Below, piece by piece: positions 1,751-12,698 of a stretch of DNA of 12,698 bases; positions within the stretch are counted from its first letter, which is position 1; every line of letters starts with the position of its first letter. The translations under genes were made by a program, and so were the position numbers. Where the stretch lies: the UHGV virus genome UHGV-0271890. One strand, given 5' to 3'. The DNA comes from a virus. The notes beneath the pieces were generated by a model that worked only from the letters and a program-made list of their open reading frames with translations, ran no database searches and had not been told where the DNA came from.

Positions 1751-3166
1751 TTACCAGATGTAACGGTCAATCATTACTGCTTTGAGCATTACGCTGATTG
1801 GGTCAAACTTCTCACCACCAAGCAGAGCTTTTAAAGTGGCTGGAGAGAAACCAGATACCATTGCTACACCGTTATCCTTAACAGATACTTCGCAAGTACC
1901 ACTACGGTTTGCTAAGTACCAGAATACCAGTTGTGGCATTTCGTATCCAGCTTTTTTGTACTTACTACGAATTGCTTCAAAGTTTGTACGACCGTTAGCT
2001 CCATCAACCTGATTGAACTCCATATCGGAGAAGATGATAAGCTTACTTGGCATATCTTTCTGAGTCAAGTTGTTTCTTTTACCTGTCTCAAGAATACGGT
2101 CAAAAGCAGCTTGTAAGTTAGTTGAGCCATATTCAACGTGTCGCATCACCTGACGATGACGGTTTCGTAAATCACCACTCAGTTCGATGAAGTGAGGGTT
2201 TGTTGAATAAACCATCAACTCATTCTTAAAGCAACCTGTATTACGTTCTGCTACATACAATGCAAGTGAAACACCAATATCAAGAGCAGTAATTGAACCA
2301 AAATTCACCCAAGACATTGAGCTTGAAACATCAGACATACACAAGATGTTTTCACCCTCTGCCATCCAGTTTGGTAGTGCTTTCCACTGCTCATTAGCAA
2401 CATCTGCATTACCATGCTTAACAGATTTAATTACATCGTATGGGTAAACAGCACCAGCATTAATCTTAGTCTCACCCTTTGATAAGGACTCGATGTAAGC
2501 TTTGTAGCGTTCTCCATCTTTACGGTTAAACAGTTTTTGGTAACGTGCAGCAGCAAGTGAAGGAATCTTACTGTAGTCAATCTTACCAAACTCATTAGCA
2601 GAGATTTTTTGCTCAACTGTATCAGATAGTGCAGACAACAGTGTGCGGTACTCTTTCTCACTCAAGTTGGCAAACTTGCAGAAACGTTTTACAAACTGCT
2701 TATGACGTGGTTTGACTCGTGGTAACCACTTAGCTGCCAAACCTGCTGTTGCAGGGTCTAGTAATGCTGCTTCTAAATGTTTGAAGGCATCTGTCTCGAA
2801 ACGAGTACCTACGAAGATTTTGAAGTCATCAAAACGACCAAGTTCTGCAATCTTATCCATAATGCGAAGAACCTGTGTAGGCTCTAAAACTTTATCTTCA
2901 ATTGCTTGAAGCAAAACAGTTCTGAAGGCTTTACGCTCACCCATACCTTCTCGTACATCTCGCATGTGAAGCAAAATACGAACTGCAACATCAACATCCT
3001 CACGCAAAGCTTTGTAGAACAGGTCTGGTAAGATTTCTACATTGCTACGGCTCGAACCAGCAGATTTGTAAAAGTCTACAAGAGCAGACATTGATGAAGT
3101 ATGGTTTACAGCACCATTTTCAGTTCGACCTGCATGAAGGTGCGCATGTTTAAATAATTCGCTCAT
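1751..3166 (-). CDS. vWA (MIDAS) domain protein, 471 aa; possibly Ro60/TROVE-like or DUF2828-like
   Basis: Long ORF with RBS; MIDAS motif D-x-S-x-S (ILCMSDVSSSMS, ~nt 2300-2340) followed by predicted alpha/beta segments; N-terminal ~270 aa likely helical. Family assignment is from memory. Confidence 0.8.
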   Translation of the reverse strand: MSELFKHAHLHAGRTENGAVNHTSSMSALVDFYKSAGSSRSNVEILPDLFYKALREDVDVAVRILLHMRDVREGMGERKAFRTVLLQAIEDKVLEPTQVLRIMDKIAELGRFDDFKIFVGTRFETDAFKHLEAALLDPATAGLAAKWLPRVKPRHKQFVKRFCKFANLSEKEYRTLLSALSDTVEQKISANEFGKIDYSKIPSLAAARYQKLFNRKDGERYKAYIESLSKGETKINAGAVYPYDVIKSVKHGNADVANEQWKALPNWMAEGENILCMSDVSSSMSWVNFGSITALDIGVSLALYVAERNTGCFKNELMVYSTNPHFIELSGDLRNRHRQVMRHVEYGSTNLQAAFDRILETGKRNNLTQKDMPSKLIIFSDMEFNQVDGANGRTNFEAIRSKYKKAGYEMPQLVFWYLANRSGTCEVSVKDNGVAMVSGFSPATLKALLGGEKFDPISVMLKAVMIDRYIW

Positions 3167-4031: not shown

Positions 4032-4246
4032 AAATCGCAGATATTATAGATTTATATCAAACTGCAAAGAGTCATGGCTATATAACCTCAATTGGAAAGA
4101 ATAGTCACTATGATGCTTTGACTGGAATGTATTTCAGGGCAATGGCTCAATCTAGTGAACAACACTTAATGGTTTCTTCCAGTGAGTTTACTTCGTTTCT
4201 CTATTGCAGCAAAATTATAAATCGCAGGAGAACTGAAAAATGTTAA
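4013..4246 (+). CDS. Hypothetical protein, 77 aa
   Basis: ATG preceded by AGAGGA; overlaps neighbours by a few codons. Confidence 0.45.
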   Translation: MCSSQLEIADIIDLYQTAKSHGYITSIGKNSHYDALTGMYFRAMAQSSEQHLMVSSSEFTSFLYCSKIINRRRTEKC

Positions 4247-4830
4247 CAGTAAGTTTTAATTACAATAGTGATGGCTCTGTATCAATTAATTCGCCATATG
4301 CAAATGACCTACTTAAAGAGCTAGTCAATCAGTGTGATAGAGGTCTTCACTATGTTCAAAATTCTTTTAAACAGAAGACTATTGCTAATAACTTGATGCG
4401 TGTAACAGTAACGGCATCGAATCCAAATTATGACTTTGATAGTGAAAGTCCGTACTCATTAGTTGCGCTTGGAGAGAGCAGCCAATTCAAACTTGTTTGC
4501 CACGACTCAGAAACATTCCTTAAGGTATTTTCCAACCTTATTCATAATAATAAGTACAGCTACGTCGATGGTAGTGTAAATTTCTATCCAGCAAACTATA
4601 CATGTTTGTTGGTTGATAATATGAGAAAAAGTAAGCAAGAGCCTACAGAAATTTCATTTGATGTAAACTCTAGCCCAGACGCAGAAACAAGTAAGAACTT
4701 TGATATGAGCTACGCATTGTCACTCAGTAAGAAATCCGAGTTCATTGATTATGTCAATGGATTTGGTTTTAAGTTTGATGAGAGTATGAATCTTAAAAAA
4801 CTTAAGAACCTACTTAAGACCAAAGCTTAA
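4240..4830 (+). CDS. Hypothetical protein, 196 aa
   Basis: ORF with AGGAG RBS; followed by hairpin terminator. Confidence 0.75.
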   Translation: MLTVSFNYNSDGSVSINSPYANDLLKELVNQCDRGLHYVQNSFKQKTIANNLMRVTVTASNPNYDFDSESPYSLVALGESSQFKLVCHDSETFLKVFSNLIHNNKYSYVDGSVNFYPANYTCLLVDNMRKSKQEPTEISFDVNSSPDAETSKNFDMSYALSLSKKSEFIDYVNGFGFKFDESMNLKKLKNLLKTKA

Positions 4831-4838
4831 GTGTGAAT

Positions 4839-4865
4839 AGGGGCTGATGCCCCTTTAACTATTTA
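4839..4865 (+). terminator. Rho-independent terminator-like hairpin
   Basis: AGGGGC-TGAT-GCCCCT stem-loop followed by a T-rich tract. Confidence 0.5.
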
Positions 4866-4877
4866 TAAGGATATTTA

Positions 4878-5249
4878 ATGAAAGCTAAGAGTGCAAAAGA
4901 CTTTTATTGCTTCCTACAATCCTATATCAATTCCGTGCAAAATGGTGAAAGGTACAACCTTAATGATGTTATCCCAACACCTTTGACATGGAGACTCAGC
5001 AAATGGCCTGAAGAAGATATTACACCAACAAGCGAACAGTGTACCTACAAACCTGAAATCAATATTCCAGATTCTGAGAACCTATTATACCCAATGTTCC
5101 ATATTGTTGGACTTGGAAGATTCCTTATGGATATCCAGTATGTAATTGGTAAAGGTTATAAGGTTAAAGGTATTGTTGTTGGTGATGTATCTCCGCATCA
5201 CAAAGGTTATTTTAGACTAAACGCACATTTAGAGGCTAAAAAGAAATGA
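4878..5249 (+). CDS. Hypothetical protein, 123 aa, paralog of the N-terminal domain of the next gene
   Basis: ORF with AAGGA RBS; shares a conserved block with the 5246..6379 product (FMDIQYVI vs FMDLQYAI, plus shared residues around W-P-E-x-D-I and Y-K-P). Confidence 0.75.
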   Translation: MKAKSAKDFYCFLQSYINSVQNGERYNLNDVIPTPLTWRLSKWPEEDITPTSEQCTYKPEINIPDSENLLYPMFHIVGLGRFLMDIQYVIGKGYKVKGIVVGDVSPHHKGYFRLNAHLEAKKK

Positions 5250-6379
5250 TTAAAGCAAAGACTTACCCAGACTTCAAAGAGTTTGTGAAGGGCTTCGTTG
5301 CAAATGTAAAGGCTGGTAAGAGATATGATTTTAGAACATATCAGGAGGCTATTTTACCGCTTACCTATAGTTCGTATTGGCCTGAAGCTGATATTGCAGA
5401 AGTTGAGAAGTTTGACTACAAACCAGACTACAAAGTTCCATTTAGTGATGAGTTGCTTTACAGCGTTGGTGCTCAAATGAGAACTTCTGACTTCTTCATG
5501 GATTTGCAGTATGCAATCATCAATGGTAAAGATGTTGACACAATTTACTGTGAATGGTTGGCAAGAGTTAAGCCGTTCTCAATGTTGAATGCTAAGTTGA
5601 AGGATGCTATTAAGCCACCAGCAATTACTCAGCAACCAACAGGTCAAACAGTCAATGAGGGTGGCACACTTACTCTAAGCATTCTAGCAACTAACGCCAC
5701 TGGATATCAGTGGAAGAAGGATGGTGAGGACATCCCTAGTGCCAATTCTGCAACTTACACAAAACAGTCAGTAGCACCTTCTGACGCTGGTTCATACACT
5801 TGTGTTGTATCTGGAGAGGGTGGAACAAGTGTTACCTCAGATACAGCAACAGTGACTGTGAACGCACTGCCTGTGATTACACAACAACCTTCTAGCCAGA
5901 CCATCAATGAGGGTGGAAACATCAACTTGGAAGTGACTGCAACTGGTGCAACTGGTTACCAATGGAAGAAAGATGGCTCTGACATTCCTTCAGCGACAAA
6001 TGCTGCCTATAGCAAGTCTGGTGCGCTGCCAGCAGATGCAGGTTCATACACTTGCGTTGTAACAGGTGCAGGTGGTTCTGTTACTTCTAGTCCTGCAACA
6101 GTTACTGTGAATGCACTTCCAGTAATCACTCAACAGCCAACCAATCAAGAAATCACTGAAGGTGAGACATTAACACTTAACGTTGTAGCAACAGGTGCAA
6201 CAGGTTATCAGTGGAAGAAGGGTGAGGAAGTCATCCCAGACGCAACTGCTGCAACTTACATCAAAGAAGGTGCAACCGCTGCTGATGCAGGAAGCTACAC
6301 CTGTGTAGTGACTGGTGCAGGTGGCTCTGTAACATCTAATGCAGCAACAGTTACAGTTAACCCAGCAGGGGAGGCGTAA
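5246..6379 (+). CDS. Protein with N-terminal paralogous domain and three tandem Ig-like domains, 377 aa
   Basis: ATGA start/stop overlap; three ~82-85-aa repeats, each with ITQQP...EG...ATGYQWKK...DAGSYTCVV...VTVN (I-set-like Ig signature). Confidence 0.85.
   Translation: MIKAKTYPDFKEFVKGFVANVKAGKRYDFRTYQEAILPLTYSSYWPEADIAEVEKFDYKPDYKVPFSDELLYSVGAQMRTSDFFMDLQYAIINGKDVDTIYCEWLARVKPFSMLNAKLKDAIKPPAITQQPTGQTVNEGGTLTLSILATNATGYQWKKDGEDIPSANSATYTKQSVAPSDAGSYTCVVSGEGGTSVTSDTATVTVNALPVITQQPSSQTINEGGNINLEVTATGATGYQWKKDGSDIPSATNAAYSKSGALPADAGSYTCVVTGAGGSVTSSPATVTVNALPVITQQPTNQEITEGETLTLNVVATGATGYQWKKGEEVIPDATAATYIKEGATAADAGSYTCVVTGAGGSVTSNAATVTVNPAGEA
5615..6370 (+). repeat. Three tandem ~250-bp in-frame repeats encoding Ig-like domains
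   Basis: Protein-level repeats are strongly conserved while the DNA has diverged at synonymous positions. Confidence 0.8.
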
Positions 6380-6843
6380 TGCAACTCTCAAGAAAAGGTT
6401 TAGACGCTATTAAGTTCTTCGAAGGTCTGAAGTTAGAGGCTTACGAAGACTCTGCCGGAATCCCAACAATCGGGTATGGGACAATCCGTATTGACGGAAA
6501 ACCTGTTAAGATGGGTATGAAAATTACTGCTGAACAAGCTGAACAGTATCTTCTCGCAGATGTTGAAAAGTTCGTTGCAGCAGTGAACAAAGCCATCAAG
6601 GTTCCAACTTCTCAGAATGAGTTCGATGCACTTGTAAGTGAAACATACAACATCGGTATCACAGCTATGCAGGATTCTACATTTATCAAGCGCCACAATG
6701 CTGGTAATAAGGTAGGTTGTGCAGAAGCTATGCAGTGGTGGAACAAGGTTACAGTCAAAGGTAAGAAGGTCACTTCAAACGGACTGAAAAACAGACGTAG
6801 AATGGAAGCTGACATTTATCTTGACAGTGTATATCCAAAGTAA
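6379..6843 (+). CDS. Lysozyme, glycoside hydrolase family 24 (T4/P22-type), probable endolysin
   Basis: N-terminal FEGLKLEAYEDSAGIPTIGYG has the E-x8-D-x5-T catalytic spacing of T4 lysozyme; overall resembles P22 gp19; TAATG start overlap. Confidence 0.92.
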   Translation: MQLSRKGLDAIKFFEGLKLEAYEDSAGIPTIGYGTIRIDGKPVKMGMKITAEQAEQYLLADVEKFVAAVNKAIKVPTSQNEFDALVSETYNIGITAMQDSTFIKRHNAGNKVGCAEAMQWWNKVTVKGKKVTSNGLKNRRRMEADIYLDSVYPK

Positions 6844-6853
6844 TATCTTCATA

Positions 6854-6880
6854 GGCTCCTTCGGGAGCCTTTTTATTTTC
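6854..6880 (+). terminator. Rho-independent terminator
   Basis: AGGCTCC-TTCG-GGAGCCT followed by TTTTTATTTT, immediately after the lysozyme stop. Confidence 0.75.
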
Positions 6881-6893
6881 TAAGGAGAAAACT

Positions 6894-7292
6894 ATGAAAC
6901 TTTGGGCTAGTGACTTTGGAACTTTTAAGTACACTCGCAATGGCTCAATGGTGAGAATCATTGGGAGTAACGTTGTTACAGTTGGGGATAGGGTACATAC
7001 AAGGTTTACTGTTGAGTTAGCTGAACTATCGCCTATTGAATCTGCTAACAATGGACTGTTCAAGTTTGAGACTTACCATGTAAATGAACACGGGCAGTTT
7101 AATACTCTAGGGGAAAGTGGTCTTGATATTATTTCAGAACACCCCTTGACAAGAGAGCAACTTGCAGGTTACTATAAAACCATTCTTGAAAGGACTTTGG
7201 CAACACATGAGCATGAGGCCAGATACCACATAGAACGATGTGAAGTTTTAAGAGCAAAAATCGAACAAGCAGAGAGAGGTTTTTATGAATAA
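6894..7292 (+). CDS. Hypothetical protein, 132 aa
   Basis: ORF with strong AAGGAG RBS. Confidence 0.75.
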   Translation: MKLWASDFGTFKYTRNGSMVRIIGSNVVTVGDRVHTRFTVELAELSPIESANNGLFKFETYHVNEHGQFNTLGESGLDIISEHPLTREQLAGYYKTILERTLATHEHEARYHIERCEVLRAKIEQAERGFYE

Positions 7293-7680
7293 TAGCAGTC
7301 ATATCCACGTTAAAGTTGATGTCAGTCGTTACAGTGAAAATGAAGAATTAGACCTGCAAGATGCTCTTCTATTTGAGAAGAATGGCAATCTGCATTTGCA
7401 TTTTGAAGGTACAAACACATATCTCCACAGATGTCGAGATGATGCCGATGGTTGCCCTGTTTTTGCTTGGTATAATTTAGAGTTTCCTCTTTATGCAATC
7501 CACTATCCAGATGGTGGAGAAGACTGGACAACTCAATCAATCTTTGATGAGCTTAATGGTGTTCCAGTTGAGCAAGAAGAGCAAGAGCCTGTTGAACTCA
7601 CCTTCACTTTTATCAAAGAAGAGAAAGTTGGTGATTTGTCAGTAACTGAAGCAATTCAAGTCTCACAGGTTATTCGTTAA
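7285..7680 (+). CDS. Hypothetical acidic protein, 131 aa
   Basis: ORF with GAGAGAGG RBS; overlaps neighbours by a few nt. Confidence 0.75.
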   Translation: MNNSSHIHVKVDVSRYSENEELDLQDALLFEKNGNLHLHFEGTNTYLHRCRDDADGCPVFAWYNLEFPLYAIHYPDGGEDWTTQSIFDELNGVPVEQEEQEPVELTFTFIKEEKVGDLSVTEAIQVSQVIR

Positions 7681-7973
7681 TGAGTAAAGTACAGGTTGTT
7701 TTCCCTATTTGTGACTTCTCACTAGAGCGTGAACTTGACCTGTACGAAGAAATTACTGACGAAATTATCTGGTCTGTTGTAGAAGAGGCTATCAAGAAAC
7801 TGTATGGTGGCCTCTTAAACCCATCAAGTAAGAAGTTAAGCACTAAGCAAGTAGCTGACCCATATGTTTCATATGATGCCTACAACAAACCTTTTGAGAA
7901 TACCTGCTTTGACCTTATGGTAGGTAATAACAAAGTCAACTATTTCTTCGTCAGAGAGTTTAACGATGAGTAA
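7680..7973 (+). CDS. Hypothetical protein, 97 aa
   Basis: TAATG overlap with the upstream gene. Confidence 0.65.
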   Translation: MSKVQVVFPICDFSLERELDLYEEITDEIIWSVVEEAIKKLYGGLLNPSSKKLSTKQVADPYVSYDAYNKPFENTCFDLMVGNNKVNYFFVREFNDE

Positions 7974-8310
7974 GCTCCATGTCACAGTGTACAAAAACTT
8001 CTCAGATATCAAAGAGTCTTTAACAAATAAGCTTGACTTACAACGTAAAAGACTCTTTTTAATGTACGACATAGACAACTACAACCATCCTAAAGAGTTT
8101 AACTACAAAGATGGTACAAAGGTTGTTGAGTTTGAAGATTCTGTAACGGTATATGTAAAATATGACTTACCAGCAAAGTACATAGGGGTGTTAGAGTATT
8201 ATATATTCAAACATACTGGTATGCGTGGTGAATCTGTCAAGATATCTTCTATAGAAGTTTTTGAGAAACCTAACACACAACTTAAAAAGTATTTAATGAG
8301 GAAACTGTAA
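7966..8310 (+). CDS. Hypothetical protein, 114 aa
   Basis: ORF with GAGAG RBS; small overlap with the upstream gene. Confidence 0.7.
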   Translation: MSKLHVTVYKNFSDIKESLTNKLDLQRKRLFLMYDIDNYNHPKEFNYKDGTKVVEFEDSVTVYVKYDLPAKYIGVLEYYIFKHTGMRGESVKISSIEVFEKPNTQLKKYLMRKL

Positions 8311-8891
8311 TGTCCGAAGAGCAACAGAATATCACTCCACAAGTGACACTAGTACAACACTTTGGAAATATTGAAGGGTGTATTGCACTTTTTCAACCAA
8401 GCATCAACTCTCCTGCAAAAGTCTGTAAGTTGACCATGAATGTTAACAACATCAGTGTTTGCCTTGTTGATGAAGTTCAATATTTCAAGTTCAATGACAG
8501 AGAGGTTGATGCTGCACTATTGAAGTATCGAGCAAGCCTCGAAAAAGATATTGACCATAAAGAACTTGTAACGCTGTTTGGTGACCTTCACAAGCTTCTT
8601 GAAAAGGTTATGAAGCGCACATACTACATGAACAATGGTTCAATCATCACCACTTTGATTTCGCCATGTATCTCAGAGCCAATTTTAACTGATGACGGTG
8701 GATACTACGTGGTAGCATCAGCAGACTCTGATTGGTGGATGAAGAATACAGCACTGAAGACGATTATCGAGGCTATCCGTGAACACATTCCTTCATTCAG
8801 CCCGTGGAAAGGTAAAAGTGATGATTTCATTGCACTATTGAGTGAAGAGAGTAACAAGCGCAGTGCATTACTGCCTAAAAAATACTCTTGA
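8310..8891 (+). CDS. Hypothetical protein, 193 aa
   Basis: ORF with GAGGA RBS; TAATG overlap. Confidence 0.75.
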   Translation: MSEEQQNITPQVTLVQHFGNIEGCIALFQPSINSPAKVCKLTMNVNNISVCLVDEVQYFKFNDREVDAALLKYRASLEKDIDHKELVTLFGDLHKLLEKVMKRTYYMNNGSIITTLISPCISEPILTDDGGYYVVASADSDWWMKNTALKTIIEAIREHIPSFSPWKGKSDDFIALLSEESNKRSALLPKKYS

Positions 8892-8916
8892 CCGAGTATA
8901 CAAAACTGATTATGAT
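8888..8916 (+). promoter_or_regulatory. Candidate internal sigma70-type promoter
   Basis: TTGACC (8888-8893), 17-nt spacer, TATGAT (8911-8916). Confidence 0.4.
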
Positions 8917-8946
8917 GGGAGCTATCGAGAGGTAGTTCCCTTTTTA
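8917..8946 (+). terminator. Hairpin plus U-tract (terminator or 5'-UTR structure)
   Basis: GGGAGCTA-TCGAGAGG-TAGTTCCC 8-bp stem (one G:U) followed by TTTTTAG. Confidence 0.4.
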
Positions 8947-8974
8947 GTTTCTAGATAAGAGACATGGTAAAAGA

Positions 8975-9193
8975 ATGAAAAAGTTAACTACAGTTGAAGA
9001 TTACTACAAACTTTCCCTGTTAGAACAGTATCGTAGAAGCCAGAATATCAGAAAATGCTATGGTAAACACGCTGAAGGTGACTTTTACCGTTGCTATGAT
9101 GCAGATTTAAAAGGTGTAACACCTAGAGGGAAAGTCCTGCAAAGACTTGTTGACCTTGAATGGAACAAACGATTGAGAGGGGTTGGAAAATGA
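8975..9193 (+). CDS. Hypothetical protein, 72 aa
   Basis: ORF with weak RBS; stop overlaps the next start (ATGA). Confidence 0.6.
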   Translation: MKKLTTVEDYYKLSLLEQYRRSQNIRKCYGKHAEGDFYRCYDADLKGVTPRGKVLQRLVDLEWNKRLRGVGK

Positions 9194-9693
9194 TTTACGA
9201 AGAAAGATACAAGATAGATTTTCAGGATACTCGCCACCACACTTCTTTAAGAGTGACGAAACCAAATGGAGATACCGGTATCATAGCACATTTTGGTGGT
9301 GATTATTGGTATGGCACAGGTTGCTTTGAAGGCTACAATCAAGAATACTTGAAAGCATTCTACAGAGACTTTGCAAACGACTACAACAGGGTTGTTGACG
9401 AAAAGAATAAATGTATTAAGCATGAACACCATGCCAGAGGCTGCCTAAGTATTGTTATGGTACTTGCGTTCTTCTTAGCAATGTTACTAGTAGTATCAGC
9501 AATTAGCTGCATAGCTCAAGACTTGACAATTACACAGATTACTACAAAGATACACGATATCTGGTACTTGTATGCTGTTCCTTTAGCTGGTATCATCATC
9601 TCACTAATGAGGTTCAGAGTTCATAAGAAACGACTTAAGGACTCAGAGATTAAACTTGAAGAGGTAAGTAAAGAATGCAACCTACAATTATAG
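9190..9693 (+). CDS. Membrane protein, 167 aa, two predicted C-terminal TM helices
   Basis: ATG at 9190 preceded by GAGGGG and overlapping the upstream stop (preferred over the ORF-track start at 9160, which lies inside the previous gene); hydrophobic stretches VMVLAFFLAMLLVVSAISCIA and YLYAVPLAGIIISLM followed by a charged tail. Confidence 0.65.
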   Translation: MIYEERYKIDFQDTRHHTSLRVTKPNGDTGIIAHFGGDYWYGTGCFEGYNQEYLKAFYRDFANDYNRVVDEKNKCIKHEHHARGCLSIVMVLAFFLAMLLVVSAISCIAQDLTITQITTKIHDIWYLYAVPLAGIIISLMRFRVHKKRLKDSEIKLEEVSKECNLQL

Positions 9694-9770
9694 CTGTATG
9701 TGTTCGTTTTGCAATCGCTGAAATGATTAACAAGGCAATCTTAAAAGATGCCTATGGAGAGACTAAGTAA
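9675..9770 (+). CDS. Candidate small hydrophobic peptide, 31 aa
   Basis: ATG preceded by GAGGT with ~9-nt spacer; MQPTIIAVCVRFAIAEMINKAILKDAYGETK; stop overlaps next start (TAATG). Not in the ORF track because it is below 60 aa. Confidence 0.3.
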   Translation: MQPTIIAVCVRFAIAEMINKAILKDAYGETK

Positions 9771-9994
9771 TGATTAAAACACCTGTACCAATTTTTGGAT
9801 TCCCTTCTATAGAAGAATTTAAAGTCTATCTTGACAAAAACTTCTACAACGAGCAGCCTGTAACACTTCTGAAGAGTGACTTATCAGAGCTTCTTGATAT
9901 GGTTATCAAGGCAACTTCTGAGAAGGAACCTGAGCAGAAAGCTGAGAAGAAGAATAGTAAGAAATCTGATAAGAAGACTGAAAAGTCTGAGTAG
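9770..9994 (+). CDS. Hypothetical protein with lysine-rich C-terminus, 74 aa
   Basis: ORF with GGAGA RBS. Confidence 0.6.
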   Translation: MIKTPVPIFGFPSIEEFKVYLDKNFYNEQPVTLLKSDLSELLDMVIKATSEKEPEQKAEKKNSKKSDKKTEKSE

Positions 9995-10047
9995 TAACTT
10001 GAGGGGTTACTTGATAGCCCCTTTGTAGAAACTTAGAAGGTAGCGAA

Positions 10048-10476
10048 ATGAAAGAACTTATAGGTAAAGAGCTTGACGTTGTAGATGCAAAGACACAGAG
10101 GTATATAGCTACTGTTAAGTTTCTTGGAATGAATGATGCAAGTGATGATTACCCTCTCAACTGCATAGTTTTAGATAAGTTTAAGGTTTGTGGTATTAAT
10201 TTTAATGAGGATAACTTTATAAGCTTTGATAAGGACGGTTTCTGGCGTGGTAAGAACCATCCTCAAGCAAATGAGTTTGATATGCGTCTAGTGATACCAC
10301 AAAAAGGTAAATCACAAAATGTAAAAGATATCCTTGTAGAAGCCTATGCAGAAGGTATAATAGATGTTGTGCATGATGTTGAAAAAGCTTTAAAGCTTGT
10401 TATGCCACATTTAGAATCTGGAAAGCTGACTTTAGAGATGTTTAATAGGGTTATTCGGAGAGCTTATGAAGGTTAA
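10048..10476 (+). CDS. Hypothetical protein, 142 aa
   Basis: ORF with AAGG RBS. Confidence 0.75.
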   Translation: MKELIGKELDVVDAKTQRYIATVKFLGMNDASDDYPLNCIVLDKFKVCGINFNEDNFISFDKDGFWRGKNHPQANEFDMRLVIPQKGKSQNVKDILVEAYAEGIIDVVHDVEKALKLVMPHLESGKLTLEMFNRVIRRAYEG

Positions 10477-10930
10477 AGAAGTCGTTCAAAAAGCAATGCT
10501 TGATAACTCAACTAAAGACGAAATGTACAAAGAGATTTGTGATAAGTTGAATTGTTCAAGACATGCTGCTAATGTTCTTGTACATTGTTTTATCTGGGAA
10601 TGCTCAGAGGCTTATATGCAATATGTAGCGTTTGAAAGTTCTCACTTACTAGGTGATGTAGAAGCTGGTGAGAAGCTAAAAGAACCTGAGATGAAAACAG
10701 TTCCTAAAGTTGGTAATGTATACCCTCTTAAAGATTTCAAGACTGGAAAGATTGTTGCAAAAGGTGTAGTAGAATCTGTTTATCACGATGGTAAATACTT
10801 ACTTAAAATATTTGAGTATGATAGCCACTACACACACTTATGTGGGATTACATTCTTAGTAACAGAAGAAGACCTCATTAAGAACAATGGCAACAAGTTT
10901 GCAGTCCCAGCTTACCAAGTTTTACGATAA
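10466..10930 (+). CDS. Hypothetical protein, 154 aa
   Basis: ORF with GGAGAG RBS; overlaps the upstream gene. Confidence 0.75.
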   Translation: MKVKEVVQKAMLDNSTKDEMYKEICDKLNCSRHAANVLVHCFIWECSEAYMQYVAFESSHLLGDVEAGEKLKEPEMKTVPKVGNVYPLKDFKTGKIVAKGVVESVYHDGKYLLKIFEYDSHYTHLCGITFLVTEEDLIKNNGNKFAVPAYQVLR

Positions 10931-10943
10931 TGGTGTGATAGAT

Positions 10944-11492
10944 ATGGAAAAAGATAACTTAAAAGAAGTTGAAGGTAACTACTTAGTACTTGACTGGAAG
11001 GATGTTCGGGAAGCACTCTCTGAAGAAAATCTTGACTGGTTCGAACAAATTATCTTTGCAGTACGGCATAACCGAGAAGTTGAAAATGGTAAAGAGCCAC
11101 TTGAAGGAATCTTTGTAGAAAGGTCTTATCCATTCTATGAAGACACTTTGCAGAAAGTTAAGATGTACTTTAAACAGAAGAACCGTAAAGTGGTCACTAT
11201 GGTATCTCTTGGTGGACAGAGTATGTCTGTGATGGAAGATATCAACCCTAAGAGACCGAGTAAAGGTGTTTGTATAAAAATCACAGGACATGAAGAGTAT
11301 ATCTCAGTGGCTGACTTTAGTGTGTTCTGTAATGGTTCTGCTGTCTTTAATGGGTTTCACTATGATATCCGAGTGTACCCAATCAAGGGAGATGATATCA
11401 TGATGCAGATATTCGATAACAATAATGGGTTCACTCATTTTTACCAGACAACTAAGTCATCATTGAAAACAGTTCTGGAAACACTGATTTAA
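10944..11492 (+). CDS. Hypothetical protein, 183 aa (alternative start 10887 gives 201 aa)
   Basis: In-frame ATG at 10944 avoids a 44-nt overlap with the upstream gene; RBS is weak for both candidate starts. Confidence 0.65.
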   Translation: MEKDNLKEVEGNYLVLDWKDVREALSEENLDWFEQIIFAVRHNREVENGKEPLEGIFVERSYPFYEDTLQKVKMYFKQKNRKVVTMVSLGGQSMSVMEDINPKRPSKGVCIKITGHEEYISVADFSVFCNGSAVFNGFHYDIRVYPIKGDDIMMQIFDNNNGFTHFYQTTKSSLKTVLETLI

Positions 11493-11503
11493 AATATCTT
11501 AAG

Positions 11504-11535
11504 AGCCTCCTTAATTGGGGGCTTTTTAATTTTTA
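11504..11535 (+). terminator. Rho-independent terminator at the end of the plus-strand operon
   Basis: AGCCTCC-TTAATT-GGGGGCT stem (one U:G) followed by TTTTTAATTTTT. Confidence 0.7.
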
Positions 11536-11599
11536 TAAAATTTTATCGGTTGTCCCAACCTCTGGGTCACCATCATATGTGAATAAAATATCTATCCTT

Positions 11600-12698
11600 C
11601 TTAACAACCTTCTTAATCTTACTCTCTATATATAGTTATATAGTACTATATAGTATCTTAGTAACTATCTAGTGGTCTTAATAGCCCCTCTGTATAACCC
11701 TTCTAACTAGCCCTCTAACAAGCCTTCTAAACACTCTTCTAACAAGCCTTCTTAACAACCTATACAATCACCTTAACCATCCCTCTACACCCTCTTAGAA
11801 GCTCCTATACACCTCTTAATCTCTATGTCAGCTATGTTACCCTCTATAGGTGTTCACTAGGTATTACTAAGCCTCTATATAGACTGTTTTAACAAACTTA
11901 ACAGGAATATCTTTACAGACCTTATCTCACAAGGTCTAACACGGTACTAACAAGGTATCTTATAAGCCTGTTTCTACCTGTATTTTTAAAAGACTGTCTA
12001 GGTAATTATTCAGAATTTTAAAATTTTTATAAAATAGGGTTATCAAGTCATTTTTTAGGGTCTTTGAAGGAACTGAAAAATATCTGATTAGGATGTATAT
12101 CTGCTTGGTAGCCCTTAACATCCCTGTAACATCCCCTTTGCAAAATTTTAAAATATCCTTAACAATCTCTTAACAGTTCTCACATCTTCTTAACAACTCT
12201 TCAAAGGTCTTAACAGTTTCTTAACAGAACTAACAAGGGCTTAACAGTTTTCTAACAAGTGCTGAATAGTCTTTACAGAGGCTTAACAGATGACTAACAA
12301 GAGCTAACAAGTTAATTTTAAAGAGTTATTTTGTTAAGATAATTAACAAGTTCCTAACAAGTGTTTAATCTTTTTAACAAGCTATTAACATGGTCACTAT
12401 CTCTTTTCTTATCGTTCCCTTTCCCTCTTAGTGATTCTCTTAACATACCTCTTAAAAGCTCTCTATAGCTCCTTGTAAGCTCTTTTAAGCCTCTTCCTAG
12501 TAATTACACCCCCAACTATGAAGAAAGCTCTTTATAGGGCTTTTCAGGAGCTTTTAAGGCTATGTCAAATGTTCTTACAAGGCTTTTACGTGGTCTTAAC
12601 AGAGATTTAACAAGGGGCTAACAAGTTGTTAACAAGTGCCTTAAAAGCATAACTATGTAGGGTTTGTTAAGAAATTGTTAAGAAAATGTTAAGGGGGC
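11600..12698. repeat. Non-coding array of ~30 direct TAACA(A/G) motifs in ~11-bp phase, with inverted copies at the right edge
   Basis: Hand count of about 30 plus-strand TAACA occurrences; most are in the YTAACARG context. Starts at 12597/12608/12619/12630 are exactly 11 bp apart; spacings between 12116 and 12386 are 9-11 bp or multiples. Inverted TGTTAAG copies at 12665, 12676, 12688; palindromes TTGTTAAGATAATTAACAA and TTGTTAACAA. No ORF of 60 aa or more on either strand. Confidence 0.8.

Follow-up and report, generated by a model that had tools for sequence, protein, structure and literature searches.

A Hex-Dec-type head-decoration gene and its Ig-less paralog upstream of the endolysin gene in a Felix O1-like phage

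Positions 4840–6880 on the + strand of the window, that is the entire 12,698-nucleotide stretch of viral DNA (UHGV-0271890) analysed here, appear to form a late-expressed, terminator-bounded cassette encoding a small paralog, the head-decoration protein Hex-Dec and the endolysin, in this order. We consider it very probable that this account holds jointly with its two further parts, namely that the 377-aa product is the Hex-Dec decoration protein and that the 123-aa product is an ancient duplicate of its capsid-binding domain (CapBD) alone, an accessory protein whose capsid-related role is our guess. Judged by homology, the 377-aa protein is the already solved Hex-Dec/gp20 head-decoration protein of Felix O1-like phages (Ounavirinae), and we encountered no substantive evidence against this identity. 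The locus is ordinary and largely explained: its Hex-Dec part was already known, and the remaining interest lies in the small upstream CapBD copy devoid of Ig domains, which is, as far as we found, the undescribed part.

A predicted late cassette of three genes

The phage can be assigned to Felixounavirus (Felix O1-like myophages), and 250 phage records align to the window at 93–96% identity in a database comparison. According to the ORF list, the cassette genes occupy 4878–5249 (123 aa), 5246–6379 (377 aa) and 6379–6843 (154 aa), all, like the features described below, on the + strand. Between the upstream 196-aa gene and the cassette, we read from the sequence a weak terminator-like hairpin at 4840..4866 (GGGGC-TGAT-GCCCC, then TTTAACTATTTAT). 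A simple terminator scan of the window did not call this hairpin; Table 2 of the Felix O1 study (PMC3185647) includes this very sequence among rho-independent terminators, and the AYO145A record also annotates it as a terminator. A ribosome-binding site (AAGGA, 4867..4871), likewise read from the sequence, lies 6 nt 5′ of the ATG of the Ig-less CapBD paralog gene (4878..5249; 14.2 kDa, pI 8.8), the end of which overlaps the Hex-Dec start in an ATGA motif (5246..5249), with GAGG ~11 nt upstream. This overlap measures 4 nt in 26 of 28 related loci and 8 nt in the other two, and is predicted to act in translational coupling, that is it would couple the synthesis of paralog and Hex-Dec.

The Hex-Dec gene encodes the CapBD (aa 1–122, 5246..5611), which includes Arg79 and Arg107, followed by Ig-like domains 1 (aa 125–208, 5618..5869), 2 (aa 209–291, 5870..6118) and 3 (aa 292–377, 6119..6376). 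An earlier note on this DNA had placed the end of the gene at the start of the endolysin gene, and indeed its stop codon TAA overlaps the ATG (TAATG) of a T4-type lysozyme gene (PF00959, Pfam 6.6e-41; 6379..6843) that is preceded by a GGGGAGG ribosome-binding site. A strong intrinsic terminator called by the terminator scan (6853..6880; AGGCTCC-TTCG-GGAGCCT, then TTTTTATTTT) closes the three-gene cassette, and AYO145A is annotated with a terminator at the equivalent place. Felix O1 ORF36 and ORF37, whose identities with Hex-Dec and the paralog were confirmed by sequence, both peak at 60 min, alongside portal, sheath and fibre genes (PMC3185647). The order small paralog, Hex-Dec, lysozyme also recurs in a divergent metagenomic phage, and the position of Hex-Dec next to the lysozyme gene is best read as ancestral synteny across Ounavirinae; a functional fusion with the lysozyme as the meaning of this adjacency was rejected in its favour.

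The 377-aa protein as Hex-Dec

Searching the PDB with phmmer aligned the 377-aa protein from residue 1 to 9ncf_S (E=4e-292) and 9c2d_S (E=1e-166), that is chain S of 9NCF, the Hex-Dec protein of Bas63 (PMC12609058), and chain S of 9C2D, gp20 of Sf14 (PMC11821841). Its CapBD is near-identical to the modelled part of both chains, and the two residues through which Sf14 gp20 contacts the major capsid protein, Arg79 and Arg107 (PMC11821841), are both present in the window's translation (…AQMRTSD… and …WLARVKP…). The Bas63 and Sf14 homologs have been placed on the capsid by cryo-EM, and a capsid location, occupancy of 60 sites and a variable Ig number are reported for Hex-Dec/gp20 (PMC12609058, PMC11821841); the CapBD of Bas63 Hex-Dec consists of two pseudo-symmetric lobes (PMC12609058).

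From the near-identical CapBD, we infer that the window's Hex-Dec is bound at the centres of the facet-edge hexamers of a T=9 head. Each of the 60 facet-edge hexamers would receive one monomer at its centre, docked there via the N-terminal CapBD of 120 aa, with Arg79 and Arg107 forming salt bridges to an acidic ring of the major capsid protein and the three acidic I-set-type Ig domains projecting outward as a flexible fibre. By analogy to T4 Hoc, this fibre may serve in mucus or surface adhesion or in aggregation control.

The earlier note had found a virion-type Ig protein at odds with an otherwise non-structural locus. While the neighbourhood is non-structural, the paradox does not stand, as this is a known virion protein encoded outside the structural module: Bas63 Hex-Dec lies >10 kb outside that module (PMC12609058), and the Felix O1 ortholog gp36 was detected in virions by mass spectrometry in 2010, with 44% coverage (PMC3185647). 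The 'tail protein' label (GenBank, phrog_3995) is a legacy error that arose because of Ig similarity to major tail proteins; the tail-type profiles phrog_158 and phrog_853 match only the Ig region of the 377-aa protein, and cryo-EM puts its homologs on the capsid.

Conservation and turnover of the Ig repeats

Pfam recognised Ig_3 (3.7e-32), Ig_2 (9e-30) and I-set (2e-24) in the 377-aa protein, each in three stretches, bearing out the earlier reading of three tandem I-set-like domains. Between the units, identity is 65–70% at the amino-acid level and 63–68% at the nucleotide level, with only 34–53% at third codon positions, and 55–64% of the identical residues are encoded by different codons. 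Tandem Repeats Finder, in turn, detected no 249-bp array and no tandem repeat at the DNA level. The repeats are hence conserved as protein and diverged as DNA, as had been claimed, and a dN/dS of ~0.12 for Ig1 between orthologs agrees with the further claim that they are kept by selection.

The Ig copy number ranges from 1 to 4 in 28 related loci. The window's units find their best matches in Bas63 units 1 (89%), 2 (95%) and 4 (96%), respectively, and Bas63 unit 3 is without a counterpart in the window. Unit number very probably shifts through in-register recombination between units.

Homology and evolution of the small paralog

BLASTP aligned the 123-aa and 377-aa proteins at 37% identity over 101 aa (E=6e-17), upholding the paralogy proposed earlier between the small protein and the first ~120 aa of the large one, and each protein matches the other's PHROG family (4e-15, 1e-15). 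The 123-aa protein also matches the solved CapBD chains 9ncf_S (E=6e-12) and 9c2d_S (E=4e-11). Structure prediction of the paralogous domain agreed: the AlphaFold2 model (pLDDT 72) matched only 9c2d_S and 9ncf_S in the PDB (TM 0.66 over 117 columns, probability 1.0), the next match having E=0.5. A complete CapBD fold is thus predicted for the 123-aa protein, with homology along its full length. Its gene corresponds to Felix O1 ORF37, Sf14 gp21, bas63_0125, VpaE1 ORF40c and phrog_4463.

The protein ends at residue 123, with no Ig or other outward display module and no Pfam domain, and all 50 of 50 homologs are 104–124 aa long. At the position of Arg79, small paralogs have an invariant Gly, and at that of Arg107 a His, Gln or Arg; the pair of capsid-contact arginines of Hex-Dec is not conserved in the 123-aa protein. 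The most conserved segments, aa 69–94 and 103–119, represent the lobe contacting the capsid in Hex-Dec, and the basic pI of the paralog, as opposed to 5.5 for the Hex-Dec CapBD, is compatible with an acidic hexamer centre. Searches of PADLOC, NCBIfam and Pfam with the 123-aa protein returned no match, on which ground a defence or anti-defence function was set aside. A profile search across 1.84 billion representative proteins yielded only 13 clusters at E<=1e-3, which marks the CapBD as a narrow domain confined to Ounavirinae-type phages, with no informative distant homolog.

With a dN/dS of 0.11–0.14, compared to 0.04 for the Hex-Dec CapBD, the 123-aa gene is by this measure under purifying selection, evolving 2–3x faster than the CapBD. 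A decaying pseudogene in the window was rejected on the same values and on its integrity, the 123 aa being intact and the gene likewise (120–124 aa) in 28 of 28 fully recovered related loci. True decay was confined to one clade, to which REP11, Z31 and SP116 belong and in which 19 phage records have a common decayed remnant; the paralog is therefore dispensable. Kolesnikvirus never had it.

With 99% bootstrap, the tree groups the small paralogs from three lineages together, apart from the neighbouring CapBDs, which rejects recent or repeated duplication as well as gene conversion. Close pairs (77–100%) aside, bootstraps of Hex-Dec clades were low (9–41%), which we suspect to be an artefact of re-rooting before support counting, and the conclusions drawn from the tree rest only on the small-paralog clade. 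The 123-aa gene is, on this phylogeny, the product of one ancient tandem duplication of which the CapBD alone was retained. The earlier note had the 377-aa protein acquiring its Ig domains; evolution probably ran the other way, with the Ig-less 123-aa form as the derived one, because all single-copy members of the CapBD family already bear an extension at the C-terminus (Big_2 in Kolesnikvirus, I-set in P0101, 200 aa of unclassified sequence in a Hafnia phage and a charged tail in P0102).

Candidate roles of the small paralog

The published virion proteome of Felix O1 does not contain the ORF37 product, though proteins of 9.7–13.7 kDa were detected (PMC3185647). In VpaE1, for which 22 virion proteins were identified, the paralog is not marked as structural and is listed as 'hypothetical'. 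The Sf14 and Bas63 structure papers give it no density and no mention, though both phages encode it (PMC11821841, PMC12609058); in both papers and the Sf14 supplement, 'paralog', 'duplication' and 'gp21' are absent or used in another sense. A literature search on the name 'Hex-Dec' returned the Bas63 paper only (PMC12609058).

We picture the 123-aa protein as a functional, non-essential accessory protein that would be co-produced with Hex-Dec. Our best guess is that it may still engage capsid hexamers or Hex-Dec, transiently or at low occupancy, and would modulate how heads are decorated or assembled instead of forming a stoichiometric part of the virion. The predicted CapBD fold, the single clade, the conserved contact lobe, the pI of 8.8 and the dN/dS of 0.11–0.14 speak for a capsid-linked role; the change of Arg79 to Gly, the absence from virion proteomes and maps and the decay in 19 records speak against it.

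Alternatively, the paralog could have kept only the fold and serve a capsid-unrelated function, for example as a host- or defence-directed late protein. Its faster evolution, the lost Arg79 contact, a charge reversed relative to the CapBD and its absence from virions in published data would all fit. However, the PADLOC, NCBIfam and Pfam searches were empty, the gene is strictly linked to and overlaps Hex-Dec across three lineages, and conservation peaks in the part homologous to the capsid-contact lobe; we hold this explanation to be somewhat unlikely.

As a regulator or chaperone of Hex-Dec outside the virion, the paralog would either compete with Hex-Dec for its hexamer sites, tuning fibre number or delaying loading until capsid expansion, or pair with Hex-Dec's pseudo-two-fold CapBD ahead of loading. 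Such a role, which we rate as unlikely, is consistent with the ATGA overlap, kept in 26 of 28 loci, by which production of both proteins would be coupled, with late timing identical to that of Hex-Dec, with a non-essential paralog absent from virions in published data and with a CapBD built from two pseudo-symmetric lobes (PMC12609058). Against it, Hex-Dec loads normally, as far as known, in phages of the clade with the decayed paralog as well as in paralog-free Kolesnikvirus.

That the 123-aa protein serves as an additional hexamer ligand devoid of Ig domains, acting as a three-fold plug or as a competitor or timer that sets the number of Ig fibres per head, appears distinctly unlikely to us. 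If true, a T=9 shell would have its non-equivalent hexamers divided between two paralogs, or its decoration stoichiometry regulated by them; the two Ounavirinae structure papers describe no such two-paralog hexamer division or decoration control (PMC11821841, PMC12609058). One version of it, a virion component plugging the 20 three-fold-axis hexamers left free by Hex-Dec, is quite improbable. The plug would have been overlooked since a three-fold monomer is smeared by icosahedral averaging, which was applied to both the Sf14 and Bas63 capsid maps (PMC11821841, PMC12609058), and since 20 copies of 14 kDa are easily missed; the predicted full CapBD fold, the late expression shared with Hex-Dec and a basic pI facing an acidic hexamer centre agree with it, and the changed contact residues would suit the differing Asp221 geometry in Sf14 three-fold hexamers (PMC11821841). 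Yet no density was observed at the other Bas63 hexamers (PMC12609058), the Felix O1 and VpaE1 virion proteomes lack the protein while containing baseplate proteins of similar copy number as well as smaller proteins, and a viable clade exists in which the gene is decayed.

Finally, we give next to no credence to the two ORFs being expressed in part as a single fusion protein of two CapBDs and three Ig domains via −1 ribosomal frameshifting on AAAAAG (5238–5243), a motif that occurs in 18 of 28 loci and lies just 5′ of the paralog stop and beyond the final stop of the Hex-Dec frame (TAA, 5237–5239), which is the −1 frame relative to the paralog: neither the motif nor the frame offset is kept in Mooglevirus-type loci, with AAAAAG missing from their junctions (gctaagaaATGa, gctaataaATGa), the offset differs in two loci, Hex-Dec comes with a Shine-Dalgarno sequence and ATG of its own, the size reported for Felix O1 gp36 is the predicted 31.6 kDa (PMC3185647), and the solved chains begin at Met1 of Hex-Dec. 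We rejected a programmed fusion and retain the accessory protein with a guessed capsid-related role as our preferred reading.

Implications

Most GenBank records listed carry 'tail protein' for the Hex-Dec gene and 'hypothetical' for its small neighbour; 'Hoc-like hexamer decoration protein' and 'CapBD paralog' would be better labels. Felix O1-type phages serve as biocontrol agents against Salmonella and E. coli. With a natural capsid anchor at its N-terminus and an exchangeable display module (I-set in 1–4 units, Big_2 or a charged tail), Hex-Dec is attractive for phage display on such phages. If the paralog binds capsids, it would represent a ready-made minimal anchor and could show how the non-equivalent hexamers of one shell are distinguished; if it does not, it is merely a conserved accessory gene.

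Comparison with known systems

Like T4 Hoc, Hex-Dec is a monomer at hexamer centres with a string of Ig-like domains projecting from the head. PHROG 'Hoc-like head decoration' profiles match the window's Ig region, yet only over aa 120–290, and the Hoc CapBD is C-terminal (the order being reversed), topologically distinct and unrelated in sequence (PMC12609058), so that membership in the T4 Hoc family was rejected. The Ig domain of T5 pb10 (5lxk_A) matches aa 133–207 of the window's protein (E=1.5e-12), but pb10 has a single Ig domain and a capsid-binding domain without a sequence match to it. In phiEa21-4 (Kolesnikvirus), gp38 has a distant CapBD (37% identity) and is likewise encoded upstream of the endolysin; here, in contrast, the display module is a single Big_2, as seen in the close relative P0099, no small paralog is present and a terminator separates gp38 from the lysin gene.

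Sf14 gp20 (Mooglevirus; 9C2D/9C3A chain S) resembles the window's protein in its N-terminal 118-aa CapBD with Arg79 and Arg107 and its three Ig-like domains (PMC11821841), and the gene order gp21 (122 aa), gp20, gp19 (lysin) is also that of the window. The CapBDs are ~88% identical, whereas the Ig units reach only 53–69%. AYO145A gp41, named as a three-Ig homolog of Sf14 gp20 (PMC11821841), comprises 377 aa, the same length as the window's Hex-Dec. Bas63 (Escherichia phage JohannRWettstein) Hex-Dec, 9NCF chain S, is of the same family and from the same genus as the window's protein (PMC12609058). It differs in having four Ig units instead of three, unit 3 being the extra one, and shares with it the same I-set Ig units, a nearly identical CapBD over aa 1–122 and a gene located between the 123-aa gene and the endolysin.

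The 377-aa protein is a known capsid decoration protein

The earlier note had described tandem paralogs of 123 and 377 aa, the longer one carrying three Ig-like domains that are alike as protein, diverged as DNA and maintained by selection, directly upstream of a lysozyme gene. All of these factual elements were confirmed, and the larger gene (5246-6379, + strand, ORF call), which happens to lie beside the endolysin gene, encodes a capsid decoration protein that is already known and has a solved structure. Comparison with PDB sequences matched its product to chain S of 9NCF ('Immunoglobulin-like domain protein', 460 aa, E=4e-292) and of 9C2D/9C3A ('tail protein', 372 aa, E=1e-166), which are the icosahedral capsid reconstructions of Escherichia phage Bas63 (PMC12609058) and Shigella phage Sf14 (PMC11821841), respectively. 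The protein is called Hex-Dec in Bas63 (PMC12609058) and gp20 in Sf14 (PMC11821841). [quoted passage not shown] Salt bridges link Arg79 and Arg107 to Asp221 in the major capsid protein (PMC11821841). Both arginines are kept in the translated Hex-Dec of the window, which shares its length of 377 aa with AYO145A gp41, the three-Ig homolog named in the Sf14 paper (PMC11821841). As shown for these close homologs, the window's Hex-Dec would be anchored at hexamer centres through its CapBD, and its acidic Ig fibre (computed pI 4.25) may, by analogy with T4 Hoc, help virions adhere weakly to mucus or cell surfaces, or control aggregation.

Mass spectrometry of purified Felix O1 virions had already detected the ortholog gp36 (294 aa, two Ig units) in 2010, at 44% coverage; it was then named 'tail protein', and the odd placement of its gene was remarked upon (PMC3185647). 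In Bas63, the Hex-Dec gene lies >10 kb outside the structural module (PMC12609058). The 'tail protein' label, since spread through GenBank and PHROG (phrog_3995), is a legacy error, because the PHROG tail-protein and Hoc-like profiles match the Ig region only.

A conserved three-gene cassette

The gene of the 123-aa small paralog (4878-5249, ORF call), the Hex-Dec gene and the lysin gene (6379-6843; 154 aa, Pfam PF00959 lysozyme) are arranged head to tail on the + strand. Stop and start codons overlap at both junctions, as ATGA between small paralog and Hex-Dec (GAGG upstream) and as TAATG between Hex-Dec and lysin (GGGGAGG upstream), the former 4-nt overlap recurring in 26 of 28 related loci. 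The cassette is flanked by terminators, a weak hairpin before it and a strong one after the lysin gene, as also annotated in AYO145A. Searching region 4240-7300 against phage records returned 250 matches at 93-96% identity, nearly all from Felixounavirus, Felix O1-like myophages with E. coli, Salmonella and Shigella as hosts. Gene order in the window equals that of Felix O1 and AYO145A, with a nine-tRNA cluster, a DUF2828/DUF7788 'RNA-binding protein' and a DUF5681 protein encoded 5' of the cassette. A CapBD gene also adjoins the endolysin gene in Mooglevirus, Kolesnikvirus phiEa21-4, a Hafnia phage and a divergent metagenomic phage; this adjacency is ancestral.

Reverse transcription PCR in Felix O1 placed the peak of ORF36 and ORF37, the latter being the small paralog, at 60 min, when portal, sheath and fibre genes also peaked, and that of ORF35 (lysin) and ORF38 at 25 min (PMC3185647). 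An AAAAAG slippery-type motif (5238-5243) directly precedes the small paralog stop, where a -1 shift would enter Hex-Dec. Eighteen of the 28 related loci share the motif and Mooglevirus-type loci lack it; a fused product of both ORFs through frameshifting was rejected for this lack of conservation.

Ig units vary in copy number

Pfam profiles (Ig_3/Ig_2/I-set) identified three Ig-like domains in Hex-Dec, at aa 125-208, 209-291 and 292-377, which correspond to Bas63 units 1, 2 and 4 with 89%, 95% and 96% identity, respectively. Among themselves, the three units share 65-70% of residues versus 34-53% of third codon positions, different codons encoding over half of the residues that are identical, and Tandem Repeats Finder detected no DNA-level tandem array of Ig units. 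Comparison of orthologs shows purifying selection on the first unit (dN/dS about 0.12). Across the 28 related loci, Hex-Dec measures 210, 294, 377 or 461 aa, equal to one to four units. Felix O1 carries unit 1 and a 2/4 hybrid, and one-unit forms carry either unit 1 or a 1/4 hybrid. These correspondences and hybrids argue that copy number changes by in-register recombination between units. The four-Ig form (461 aa) occurs in two metagenomic loci (L008 and L012), and its full-length gene was matched in one piece, at 95.6-99.6% identity, by five isolates (pinkbiff, MET-P1-301, DaR-2019b, DR094 and AN17P8); among ICTV species, the Bas63 paper reports four units for Bas63 alone (PMC12609058).

An ancient Ig-less paralog of the capsid-binding domain

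The small paralog (Felix O1 ORF37, Sf14 gp21, bas63_0125, VpaE1 ORF40c) is 37% identical to the first ~100 residues of Hex-Dec (E=6e-17) and contains no Pfam domain. Its AlphaFold2 model (pLDDT 72), a prediction proposed in the earlier note, matched only the CapBD chains 9c2d_S and 9ncf_S in the PDB (TM 0.66, 117 columns), so that a whole CapBD fold is predicted. Homologs, about 122-124 aa when complete, were found in Felixounavirus, Mooglevirus and one further lineage only, and a profile search of 1.84 billion representative proteins (E<=1e-3) yielded just 13 clusters for the entire CapBD superfamily.

Small paralogs from the three lineages form a single clade (99% bootstrap), which argues for one ancient duplication. 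The larger protein had been thought to have acquired its Ig domains; the reverse is probable, the Ig-less form being the derived one, because every single-copy CapBD member bears a C-terminal extension. The CapBD anchor is modular: depending on lineage it carries I-set units, Big_2, a ~200-aa unclassified part or a Lys/Ser/Glu-rich disordered tail, with alternative modules exemplified by the metagenomic protein P0102 (153 aa), P0099/phiEa21-4 gp38 and the Hafnia phage locus L005 (3001-3966).

The small paralog is under purifying selection (dN/dS 0.11-0.14), albeit more weakly constrained than the Hex-Dec CapBD (0.04). Conservation peaks at aa 69-94 and 103-119, homologous to the capsid-contact lobe of Hex-Dec. 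At the contact positions themselves, however, an invariant Gly stands in place of Arg79, and position 107 is His, Gln or Arg. The protein is basic (pI 8.8) versus the acidic CapBD (pI 5.5); the hexamer centre is Asp-lined (PMC11821841). Nineteen phage records of one Felixounavirus clade, including REP5-12, Z31, SP116, mio and Tf, share one scar of the gene (in Escherichia phage REP11, locus L003, at 2306-2497), in which the start codon is gone and ~220 bp are deleted, with the last ~60 nt at the 3' end, including the Hex-Dec ribosome-binding site, retained. We read the small paralog as a late protein that is functional and dispensable and is produced alongside Hex-Dec.

The Felix O1 virion protein list does not include it, although proteins as small as 9.7-13.7 kDa were detected there (PMC3185647). 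In VpaE1 it keeps the label 'hypothetical' after a virion proteome search covering all ORFs, which recovered 22 proteins; nor was extra hexamer density reported for Bas63 (PMC12609058). A capsid- or Hex-Dec-related role appears most likely to us, and a function unrelated to the capsid less likely. Such a protein might bind hexamers transiently or at low occupancy, compete with Hex-Dec or act as a chaperone.

Other features of the window and of database records

The tRNA cluster (253-1585, - strand) comprises Ile, Met, Lys, Asp, Tyr, Asn, Met, Glu and Pro according to ARAGORN. Seven of the nine reached the Rfam gathering score, the exceptions being Tyr (999-1086), whose AYO145A counterpart is an annotated pseudo-tRNA, and the second Met (1256-1332). 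Directly adjoining it is the gene of the DUF2828/DUF7788 protein (1751-3166, - strand; 471 aa, phrog_850), near which no Rfam family beyond tRNA was found. Many small + strand ORFs of unknown function, mostly with overlapping start and stop codons, fill 6894-11492, among them a 177-aa protein (9160-9693) with a hydrophobic stretch, annotated as a membrane protein in Felix O1/AYO145A; no holin is annotated beside the lysin. The stretch 11500-12698 is ORF-poor (none >53 aa) and AT-rich (GC 0.32-0.35), and its GC skew is strongly negative. YTAACAR matched 40 times in the window versus about 15 expected, 29 of these within 11601-12681, at spacings of about 11 and 31 nt and with inverted copies at 12656-12693. 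Situated between convergent transcription units, the motifs resemble an iteron-type array to which a protein would bind, at an origin, a partition site or a regulatory site. Finally, the record GU169904.1 ('Staphylococcus phage SA1', 147 kb) contains a 98%-identical copy of the Felixounavirus locus at 143190-143558 and is probably chimeric or contaminated; the VpaE1 supplement also gives it as best match.

Comparison with known systems

The finding is real but largely explained. The tandem paralogy is genuine and ancient and, so far as we could find, has not been described: the small paralog is not discussed in the Bas63 and Sf14 structure papers, neither text mentions paralogy or duplication (PMC12609058, PMC11821841), and 'gp21' in the Sf14 supplement denotes only an SPP1 phage protein (PMC11821841). 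It adds modestly to what is known and does not amount to a new type of system. Functionally, Hex-Dec resembles both T4 Hoc and T5 pb10. However, it lies outside the Hoc family, its CapBD being N-terminal, topologically distinct and without sequence kinship (PMC12609058), and the Ig domain of T5 pb10 matches Hex-Dec at aa 133-207 only.
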